Assembly (NCBI GenBank): GCA_015059185.1
Contig: SVAY01000008.1
Span: forward strand, 1,587 to 65,586
Direction of reading: 5' to 3'
Source of the DNA: Erysipelotrichaceae bacterium
GTDB taxonomy: Bacteria > Bacillota_I > Bacilli_A > RFN20 > CAG-826
Length of the DNA: 64,000 bases
The notes under the pieces are model-generated. The model worked only from the letters and a program-made list of their open reading frames with translations. It was not told the DNA's origin and ran no database searches. Shown piece by piece: positions 5,949-7,175 of this stretch (position 1 is its first letter; each line of letters begins with the position of its first letter). Both the position numbers and the translations under genes were made by a program.

Positions 5949-7175
5949 TCACCCCTCCAAAAGTGTCTTTTCTAGGCTTTTGATGATTGTTTTATCCTCA
6001 AGTTTCACAACTGCAGAAAAATGCGCCCCTACTCGGTTAAGCGAACTGCCTAATAAAAAATGTTCACTATCATCGATAGATAAAAATCTATCATGAAAAG
6101 GTTTGGCTATATGAATATTTATTTCACCATACTGATCTTGATACTTGTTAAGGTCCTCTATAGTGATTTTGCATCTATGCGTAGTGATGATGTGAGCTTT
6201 TACTTCTCTCTTTTTATTTTTGAGGATTGATAGAGCAACTTCATCTATATATGGATCAATTAACAATAATGTACCATTTGCCTTATGCACCAAATGGCAG
6301 AAAAAGTCGTAAGCATCAAACACTTCTCCTTCATAGAACACTATTTCCTTCTCACTTGAATTCTTATAGTTATCCTCAATAGCCTTCATCCTTTTTTCAA
6401 CCCTTTTTACATCATCTTTAAGAGTTAAATAAGATTCTTCTAATAATGCGATTCTTCTTTCATCGGTTGAATAACCCTTTATCATGTATTGGGATAGCGT
6501 TTTAATTGCCCACCTTCTAAAAATAATTCCTCTATTCGATGTTACTCTAAACCCAACAGAGATGATGACATCCAAATTATAGTAAGTGATAGTTCTAGTA
6601 ACTGTCCTTTTGCCTTCAATTTGAACTGTTGCATTTTTTGCAGTAGTTCGATTTTCCTCTAGCTCTTTTTCTTTATAAATATCAGCGATATGACCTGATA
6701 TAACTGTCTTATCTCTATCAAAAAGAATAGACATCTGATTTAGGCTTAACCACACCGTATATTGTTGAGGTGATACCCTAACATCTAAAACAACATTATC
6801 TTCCTCAAATCTAATTATATTAGATTGAATCGGTAGTAATTGACTTTTATCCTTTTCAAGTTCTTCCTTGCACCAGTTAATGAAGTATTCAGTTAATGAT
6901 GGATCAATTCTATAACCAACTTCTTTGATAATAGCTAAGTTGTAATGATCAATCTTTCTCGGTTTACCGGCAATTTCAACTGTAAAGTTTCGCTTTACTA
7001 TTAACTGGTTAGAAGTGTTATTTCCAAGAATGTTTTTTATATGTAGAGATATATTCATCTTGGATCGTTTGAATAAAATAGTCATGTCCTTTTGGCTCAT
7101 CCATACAGTATCTTCTTCAGGTGAAAAATTGACATCTAAAGTTATGTCGTTATGTTTAAAATTGAGAATCTTCAT
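5949..7175 (-). CDS. RhuM-family protein with a duplicated N-terminal module and a C-terminal PLD-like domain
   Basis: Two copies of DV..(E/Y).TVW(M/L)S...M..LF; YNLDVIISVGFRV and FRRWA RhuM motifs; C-terminal IDPYID...HDRFLSID...LGSSLN. Confidence 0.75.
   Translation of the reverse strand: MKILNFKHNDITLDVNFSPEEDTVWMSQKDMTILFKRSKMNISLHIKNILGNNTSNQLIVKRNFTVEIAGKPRKIDHYNLAIIKEVGYRIDPSLTEYFINWCKEELEKDKSQLLPIQSNIIRFEEDNVVLDVRVSPQQYTVWLSLNQMSILFDRDKTVISGHIADIYKEKELEENRTTAKNATVQIEGKRTVTRTITYYNLDVIISVGFRVTSNRGIIFRRWAIKTLSQYMIKGYSTDERRIALLEESYLTLKDDVKRVEKRMKAIEDNYKNSSEKEIVFYEGEVFDAYDFFCHLVHKANGTLLLIDPYIDEVALSILKNKKREVKAHIITTHRCKITIEDLNKYQDQYGEINIHIAKPFHDRFLSIDDSEHFLLGSSLNRVGAHFSAVVKLEDKTIIKSLEKTLLEG

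Follow-up and report, generated by a model that had tools for sequence, protein, structure and literature searches.

The genes of some DNA-binding proteins carry a binding site of the protein that they encode, as is the case for parS within spo0J/parB and for the lambda ori iterons within gene O. Other DNA sites are used as folded single strands; these include integron attC, the ends of IS200/IS605, the N4 hairpin promoters and rolling-circle replication (RCR)/oriT hairpins, and in attC, IS200/IS605 ends and oriT the hairpin structure is conserved while few of the bases are. Template switching is known to produce perfect stems together with compensatory changes of several bases (Monttinen and Loytynoja 2022, PMC8794818). 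A RhuM-domain member of PDC-S05 reduced the plating of T7 and T5 approximately 1000-fold in E. coli B (bioRxiv 10.1101/2024.09.26.614923). Here, we analysed a 64,000-nucleotide stretch of an Erysipelotrichaceae bacterium genome (contig SVAY01000008.1, positions 1,587 to 65,586), which we have designated the window. It contains a gene for a 408-amino acid (aa) protein, the N-terminal half of which is the RhuM N-terminal (RhuM-N) module duplicated in tandem, and each of the two module-coding sequences contains an in-frame palindrome.

Comparison of these palindromes with those of homologous genes showed that the arms are held Watson-Crick complementary by selection at the nucleic acid level, which overrides codon usage, genomic GC content and residue identity. 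On balance, and with moderate confidence, we favour the reading that the palindrome is a DNA dyad element, conserved in one fixed codon register, which would work as a DNA cis site of the DNA-binding module. Full-text literature searches (RhuM, KilA-N, ORF6N, PDC-S05 and Bro-N with KilA-N) returned no description of the element, and it is apparently a previously undescribed DNA signal.

Palindromes in the two RhuM-N modules of the window

The initial annotation had described a palindrome with a 5 bp spacer at the homologous position of each repeat, with inner pairs (TGCA/TGCA versus AAAG/CTTT) that are unlike between the repeats and complementary within each. A repeat search with a seed of 6 missed both palindromes because their exact seeds are short; they were scored directly instead, which bore out both the positions and the inner pairs (Table 1). 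The two pairs of the module 2 palindrome that are not Watson-Crick are G:T and T:G on the + strand, which correspond to A.C mismatches on the coding (-) strand. The module 1 palindrome has an inner run of six pairs, GTAAAG/CTTTAC. In an AlphaFold2 (AF2) model, the peptide encoded by the module 2 palindrome (TTAKNATVQ, aa 177-185) forms the first strand (E178-187) of the wing hairpin, and that encoded by the module 1 palindrome (IVKRNFTVE, aa 59-67) covers a loop end and most of the equivalent strand (E61-68). The centre of both palindromes is the third base of the aligned codon (K180 and R62), so that the register is exact.

Palindromes of such quality had 289 distinct centres in the 64 kb (approximately 4.5 per kb), with approximately six in the 408-aa gene. 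The coincidence of the two positions within the window is only nominally significant (a few percent, roughly estimated), and is weak evidence alone because similar palindromes are common there. Single palindromes of this kind would be in keeping with an origin by chance; chance, or protein-level covariation of contacting residues, is however refuted by the homolog data, as the common register, the synonymous resampling, the covariation, the third codon positions, the GC content at third positions (GC3) and the AF2 results given below all oppose it, and its probability is practically nil.

Folded as single-stranded DNA, the module 1 palindrome gave -3.6/-3.8 kcal/mol (z -3.0/-2.5) and the module 2 palindrome -5.9/-6.1 kcal/mol (z -4.0/-4.7). 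The corresponding element of a canonical RhuM gene gave -13 kcal/mol (z -8.2).

Conservation of the palindrome in RhuM relatives

The genome from which the window was taken (1.3 Mb, 22 contigs) encodes three further RhuM-N modules, two in a two-module paralog on contig C12 and one in a canonical full-length RhuM on contig C8. All five modules have the palindrome at one register and the inner pairs are different in every case (TGCA/TGCA, AAAG/CTTT, TGCAAA/TTTGCA, TGTCGA/TCGACA and TTCGG/CCGAA). A sample of 80 canonical RhuM genes was then compared, with a gene GC content of 27-67%, from Bacillota, Bacteroidota, Planctomycetota, Pseudomonadota, Acidobacteriota and others. Most of the 80 genes had 10-12 perfect pairs at a common register, for example ACTGTTCGG-AAATT-CCGAACAGT, and in the sub-families that seemed unpaired in the fixed register the palindrome was displaced by one to a few bases. 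The register palindrome was the strongest in its open reading frame (ORF) in 73 of 81 cases, with a mean of 11.8 pairs compared to 8.2 for the best of the other palindromes of the same gene.

Within the same bacterial order, a homolog was found in 93 of 301 genomes and approximately 50 relatives have the palindrome at the register. Changes in the arms of these relatives swap residues by the reverse-complement rule (S/E, C/H or Q, V/T and W/Q). Seven viral contigs also carried a palindrome at the RhuM-N register. At one locus (L058), AGG...CTA, encoding R..L, was found in place of CGG...CGA, encoding R..R, and this change from Arg to Leu indicates that pairing outweighs residue identity. Pseudogene copies with 2-4 stop codons retained palindromes of 7-16 pairs, although these pseudogenes are too young to inform on constraint. 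Two blastn searches with 33-mers against E. coli genomes returned no matches.

Two canonical RhuM genes (L021 and L024) contained an insertion of 18 aa (ATHKESLSVQPKGQVQPS) with a second palindrome, ACTCACAAGGAATCCTTGTCAGT, approximately 54 nucleotides upstream of the main one. By its sequence, this insertion is a tandem duplication of the palindrome-bearing segment within the module.

For the statistical comparisons, elements were centred on the best local palindrome and 131 of 138 passed the filter. When synonymous codons were resampled from the codon usage of each gene with the peptide fixed, 8.65 of 10 pairs were observed compared to 6.1 expected, with p <= 0.01 in 51 of the 80 genes. Among 125 distinct elements, 93.8% of cells were paired, whereas the shuffled controls gave 59.2% (none of 500 shuffles reached the observed value) and the slid controls 22-40%. 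The covariation score of the same elements was 0.897, compared to 0.259 when shuffled and 0.07-0.15 when slid, and double-sided (compensatory) changes were found at 10 of 10 pairs. Palindromy in RhuM homologs is thus far above all three kinds of control, including the codon-shuffled expectation that the initial annotation had proposed as the test of its own claim.

The fraction of Watson-Crick pairs depended on the distance, k, from the centre. It was 0.6-0.7 at k 1-2, 0.97-1.00 at k 3-7, 0.78 at k 8, 0.67 at k 9 and 0.93-0.95 at k 10-12, and fell to 0.50 at k 13 and 0.27 at k 14; the dyad is therefore bounded, with a length of 25-27 bp. The spacer was a single nucleotide in 82 of the 138 elements, in which complementarity continues through the centre.

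Selection on silent positions and residue pairs

The pairs at k3, k6, k9 and k12 join the third positions of two codons, and their expected pairing was calculated from the usage of the right-hand codon family in the same gene. Watson-Crick pairs were observed in 107 of 110 cases at k3 (50.5 expected), in 97 of 97 at k6 (28.7 expected) and in 108 of 109 at k12 (30.7 expected), which corresponds to 97-100% at these strict positions compared to 30-46% expected. No asymmetric case was found among the 97 at k6, where 68 were expected. At k9, 72 of 105 were Watson-Crick, and T.T, A.C, A.G and A.A were present in the PLD-type clade while k3-8 and k10-12 stayed paired. Where sequences encoding the same peptide differed synonymously at k6, the change was mirrored on the other arm in three of three cases. 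Such mirrored synonymous changes point to physical pairing or copying between the arms.

The third bases of the element were also decoupled from the GC content of the genome. In high-GC3 genes, codons 58-66 of canonical RhuM had A or T as the third base in 75-100% of cases at seven of the nine codons, compared to a background of 26%. Conversely, the rare codons CGG and TTC were retained in low-GC3 RhuM genes from genomes of 27-29% GC. This decoupling was sharply limited to 27 nucleotides.

The AF2 model showed that the palindrome-coded peptide is a single continuous beta-strand, the first of the wing hairpin, with the turn located after the peptide. A DNA hairpin colinear with a protein beta-hairpin, in which covarying residues would make cross-strand contacts, was ruled out by this arrangement. 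The covarying residues i and i+3 point to opposite faces of the strand and are not in contact, and the residue pairs follow the reverse-complement rule (R/R, A/A, K/L, S/E, C/Q-H and T/V). The initial annotation had argued that compensatory change of this kind is hard to explain by selection on the protein, and the covariation of synonymous third positions together with the lack of contact between i and i+3 agrees with this. Its further proposal that the variable peptide is tied to a nucleic acid symmetry element was upheld by the palindromy and compensatory changes of the homologs. Amino acid covariation in these families (R/R, A/A, K/L and others) would then reflect nucleic acid pairing and not protein contacts, which has a bearing on contact prediction and on evolutionary-rate analyses.

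Pairing in DNA and in RNA

The element could be a hairpin in the coding region of the mRNA, acting on translation, on pausing or on processing by RNase so as to control a potentially toxic gene. It shows strong covariation of a 10-bp stem that has a 5-nucleotide loop, it lies approximately 185-225 nucleotides into the coding sequence in RhuM, KilA-N and ORF6N, and tight control would be plausible for such a gene. Wobble pairs, however, were not tolerated. G:T was found twice at k3, compared to 38.8 expected, and not at all at k6, compared to 18.9 expected, and this included sites where the preferred codon would give the wobble pair. At the eight positions of best conservation (k=3-7 and 10-12, approximately 1048 cells), G:T and A:C were equally frequent, with nine of each. 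The A.C mismatches of the module 2 copy in the window are on the sense strand, complementarity often spans the loop, and Rfam gave no match for the palindrome. Only 2 of 131 elements were followed by a U-tract on the sense strand. This strand-symmetric and strictly Watson-Crick pattern argues for a constraint at the level of DNA and against a hairpin in the sense mRNA, and a sense-RNA hairpin is thus unlikely from these comparisons; as an account of the element we regard translational or processing control as improbable. For the same reasons (depletion of G:T, its equality with A:C and the absence of an Rfam match), the element was not assigned to the structured cis-regulatory RNA hairpins despite its strong covariation.

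The + (antisense) strand of the module 2 palindrome (6621-6651 of the window), which is followed by TTTTCC, scored as an intrinsic terminator. A T-tract was present on the antisense strand in 32 of 131 elements, mostly in AT-rich genomes. As the window copy scored on the antisense strand only and sense U-tracts were so rare, an intrinsic terminator was rejected for the family as a whole.

KilA-N and ORF6N genes

The initial annotation had stated that the KilA-N gene of the window shows the same phenomenon, and this was found to be the case in 21 homologs. The perfect palindrome of this gene (Table 1) has an GTCGAATTCGAC core that is fixed at silent sites, with a third-base entropy of 0-0.28 compared to a mean of 1.34. 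Its flanks covary (TGG/CCA, GGG/CCC, CGC/GCG and CCC/GGG) and the changes are accompanied by residue swaps (MVEFDQ, RVEFDP, PLEFEG and GVEIDP). Three other palindromes in the gene, which served as an internal control, were not conserved. The conserved palindrome has no spacer and codes for the start of a helix (residues 66-75); the element is therefore not bound to one structural element of the protein.

A covarying palindrome at a different codon register was also found in ORF6N genes of the same order, one of which is the ORF6N-PLD gene of the genome under study. This gene encodes a PLD-like protein of 318 aa and contains an 11-pair palindrome, TATCGAGGTCGA-AAAAA-TCGACCGCGATA. A decayed and internally deleted duplicate, located before the intact gene on contig C3, still holds AGTCGAAAAAATCGACA; the two copies lie at C3:10740-11133 and C3:11199-12155.

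Four of the eight coding palindromes of the genome share the arm core GTCGA...TCGAC, namely those of KilA-N (window 61406-61421), ORF6N (C3:11431-11447), the ORF6N remnant (C3:10776-10792) and module 1 of the C12 RhuM-N paralog (C12:32376-32392). This common core may be a coincidence or a locally preferred sequence. In another genome (G169:C4:484903-485834; L199, L204 and L179), 1 kb contained three tandem ORF6N modules or genes, of which one has a stop codon and each had its own variant of the palindrome.

The element could alternatively be a neutral by-product, in which the reverse-complement-compatible codons of T, V and I in a strand (ACN, GTN and ATN) seed a quasi-palindrome, and template switching then perfects and recopies the arms with no function being involved. 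Template switching is documented to yield such stems (PMC8794818), and both the perfect inverted repeat and the multi-base compensatory changes that characterise it were observed here. The 6.1 of 10 pairs already expected from the peptide, the strict Watson-Crick pairing without G:T, as from copying, and the freedom of the residues in the protein (R/R, A/A, K/L and S/E are all found) would fit as well. Neutral copying nevertheless predicts an approximately neutral rate, whereas the paired third positions are frozen relative to genomic GC while the rest of the genes has drifted. Homogenisation is not a blanket process either, as k=9 drifts between the strict k3-8 and k10-12. Additionally, the size and place of the element are constant across phyla and in three domain families, with a strand encoded by it in one family and a helix in a second, and the other palindromes of the KilA-N gene are not conserved. 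We therefore consider an origin without function decidedly unlikely.

Genomic copies, paralogs and mobility

No extragenic copy of the window elements was found in the 1.3-Mb genome with up to four mismatches. The only related hit outside the window elements was the decayed ORF6N duplicate on contig C3.

Alignment of the C12 paralog (C12:31325-32584) with the gene of the window (5949-7175) revealed a mosaic. Codons 85-130, which cover the linker and the beginning of module 2, shared 87-91% DNA identity, and the helix-turn-helix (HTH) and palindrome regions 33-50%. The sequence pattern points to gene conversion in the linker or else to diversification of the parts that read the DNA. Recombination breakpoints at the palindromes were looked for within this genome and rejected, as the conserved block of the paralogs (aa 85-130) is bordered away from both of them.

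A further explanation is that the element is a site of recombination, nicking or mobility, that is, a single-stranded DNA hairpin read by a recombinase or HUH nuclease which moves or shuffles the module or the gene. Retention of structure with few conserved bases is typical of attC, IS200/IS605 ends and oriT, decayed duplicates and tandem copies occur, and the modules are fused to varied effectors (RhuM-C, PLD-like and Doc, the last of which has been reported in PMC1626090). The element nevertheless lies in the middle of the module, away from its borders, and the boundaries of the C1/C12 paralog mosaic are off the palindromes. Among the inspected loci, no recombinase was consistently adjacent (the gene of the window lies between an XRE gene with whiA and gap) and no gene was seen truncated exactly at the palindrome. 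A role in mobility is thus highly improbable.

Proposed role of the element

In the reading that we favour, the palindromes of the window would be somewhat eroded copies of a conserved DNA dyad of 25-27 bp. This dyad would consist of a 5-nucleotide A/T-rich centre and arms paired at 3-7(8) and 10-12 and relaxed at 8-9, and its codon register would be the same in all RhuM-N modules, within the codons of the first strand of the wing hairpin. We infer that it acts as DNA, either by intrastrand pairing (as a single-stranded hairpin or a cruciform) or as a dyad that needs exact symmetry. Template switching during replication would probably produce the compensatory changes in a single step, with mismatched states purged by selection. 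In the most speculative step, the module most likely uses the cis site on its own gene, as the element always accompanies a DNA-binding module (RhuM-N, ORF6N or KilA-N) whatever effector is fused to it. Such use could serve promoter-independent autoregulation or the self-marking of a mobile single-gene defence cassette.

A second explanation on the level of DNA is a duplex operator, in which a dimer of the encoded winged-helix module recognises the double-stranded dyad by its sequence and the dyad acts as a self-operator or transcription roadblock without intrastrand pairing. The pairing profile would suit a winged HTH dimer on one face of B-DNA, with a variable A/T-rich centre, strict positions at +/-3-7 (centres 10 bp apart) and +/-10-12, and relaxed positions at 8-9; the half-site spacing of approximately one helical turn, as in a dyad operator, is given by these strict blocks. 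Nucleotide identity as well as pairing is conserved against GC pressure, the palindrome often runs through the centre (a spacer of 1 in 82 of 138 elements and none in KilA-N), the paralogs differ most in the HTH and wing regions, and the modules of the genome all have different sites. However, synonymous changes are mirrored while the protein is unchanged (at k6, 0 of 97 asymmetric compared to 68 expected, and three of three same-peptide cases), the many half-sites would demand equally many switches in specificity, and no further copies are present in the genome. A duplex operator without intrastrand pairing is, on this evidence, rather unlikely.

Several observations weigh against the element being a paired cis site of its own module. 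No extragenic copies that would suggest a regulon were found in the genome. The relaxed k=9 between strict pairs is not expected from simple hairpin thermodynamics, while the mirrored synonymous changes are not predicted by an independent reading of half-sites, so that neither pure model fits cleanly. The copies in the window have two mismatches each, fold weakly (-3.6 to -6.1 kcal/mol) and are among the weaker members of the class. The centring and filtering described above amount to a selection of elements, and the compared sequences are phylogenetically related, a kinship that the statistics ignore. An RNA hairpin read by a factor demanding perfect Watson-Crick pairs is also a possible alternative.

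A broader proposal, which we put forward tentatively and regard as doubtful, is that the palindrome and not the peptide would be the primary conserved unit of a superfamily of KilA-N-type DNA-binding modules (RhuM-N, ORF6N and KilA-N), with each module recognising a hairpin- or cruciform-capable site within its own codons. If this were true, some of the protein sequence would be set by DNA symmetry, and the gene would mark or regulate itself at any place of insertion. The element would thereby be a portable device for cis-control or self/non-self discrimination in single-gene anti-phage systems.

The conservation described here would reveal a signal at the level of DNA within the coding sequences of phage, plasmid and defence-island genes that are very common. 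Its strength would suffice to hold rare codons in place despite genomic GC and to choose the residues of a protein strand. The palindrome would also offer a cheap and concrete handle on genes of obscure mechanism (RhuM/PDC-S05, ORF6N and KilA-N).

The host gene and neighbouring features

The 408-aa protein was assigned to the RhuM family by Pfam PF13310 (95.6 bits, gathering cut-off 33.7) in two stretches. Each match was confined to profile positions 2-69 of 252, so the architecture is not that of a full-length RhuM. NCBIfam NF040700 matched partially in the C-terminal third, and the PADLOC model PDLC04879 matched over aa 117-396 (E 1.6e-96). By these matches, the gene is a PDC-S05-type single-gene defence candidate with a putative anti-phage role.

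The AF2 model of the protein had a mean predicted local distance difference test (pLDDT) score of 82, and RhuM-N module 1 had the topology beta-beta-beta-alpha-alpha-wing hairpin-alpha-alpha. Foldseek analysis of the C-terminus returned NucT 6ehi (E 6e-5, TM-target 0.56), Zucchini and PLD3, consistent with a PLD fold. The C-terminal motif is H361-D-R363-F-L-S-I-D368...G-S-S-L-N, with R where HxK(x)4D has K, and H361, D362 and R363 were nearly invariant in 25 relatives. A metagenome scan with the protein as query returned three fragments only.

The neighbours of the gene are a 72-aa XRE-type HTH gene, whiA and gap. As these include whiA and gap, the 408-aa gene appears as a small insertion among housekeeping genes. 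The XRE-type gene is on the same strand, 70 nucleotides upstream of the defence-candidate gene, and may be its regulator or partner.

Table 1. Features of the window discussed in the text (positions in the window)
Feature	Position	Strand	Basis or detail
408-aa ORF: two RhuM-N modules, coiled coil and PLD-like nuclease-fold C-terminus	5949-7175	-	ORF, Pfam, PADLOC, AF2, Foldseek
RhuM-N module 1, aa 1-112	6840-7175	-	AF2 model among bases
RhuM-N module 2, aa 117-236	6468-6827	-	AF2 model among bases
PLD-like domain, aa 276-408	5952-6350	-	Motif H-D-R-x4-D...G-S-S-x-N, HxR replacing canonical HxK
Module 1 palindrome, AACTGTAAAG-TTTCG-CTTTACTATT	6978-7002	.	8/10 Watson-Crick pairs
Module 2 palindrome, GAACTGTTGCA-TTTTT-TGCAGTAGTTC	6623-6649	.	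9/11 Watson-Crick pairs
XRE-type HTH gene, 72 aa	7245-7463	-	PF01381, E 8e-18
KilA-N gene perfect palindrome, TGGTCGAATTCGACCA	61406-61421	.	Codes M-V-E-F-D-Q; gene 60793-61617 (-)

Comparison with known systems

The gene of the window is a member of the PDC-S05/RhuM family by its PADLOC match. The published accounts of this family cover the proteins only and do not mention the coding palindrome. Compared to canonical RhuM, the protein of the window lacks the RhuM C-terminal domain and has two N-terminal modules and a PLD-like fold instead.

The element resembles the quasi-palindromes made by template switching (PMC8794818) in its perfect inverted repeats, its strict arms and its compensatory changes without G:U intermediates. 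Those quasi-palindromes, however, represent a mutational mechanism and not a function, whereas the present element is frozen relative to GC, free at k=9 and at a fixed codon register. The frozen paired silent sites together with the free k=9 point to position-specific selection on top of template switching.

With the folded single-stranded DNA sites, the element shares a structure that is conserved more than its sequence, a signal at the level of DNA, stems of approximately 10 bp and small loops. Those sites are non-coding, lie beside recombinase, relaxase or polymerase genes and often have extrahelical bases; the present element, in contrast, is in frame within a domain-coding region and has no such partner gene.

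An intragenic site of the parS-in-parB type was rejected for the element, the sequence of which varies widely and has no other copy (up to four mismatches) in the 1.3-Mb genome. The likeness to parS in parB and to lambda ori in gene O is that of a cis DNA site embedded in, and inherited with, the gene of a DNA-binding protein. Those sites are conserved in sequence, have no covariation between arms and usually have further copies elsewhere, whereas in the present element the sequence varies and complementarity is strict, with one site per module and putative binding by that module.

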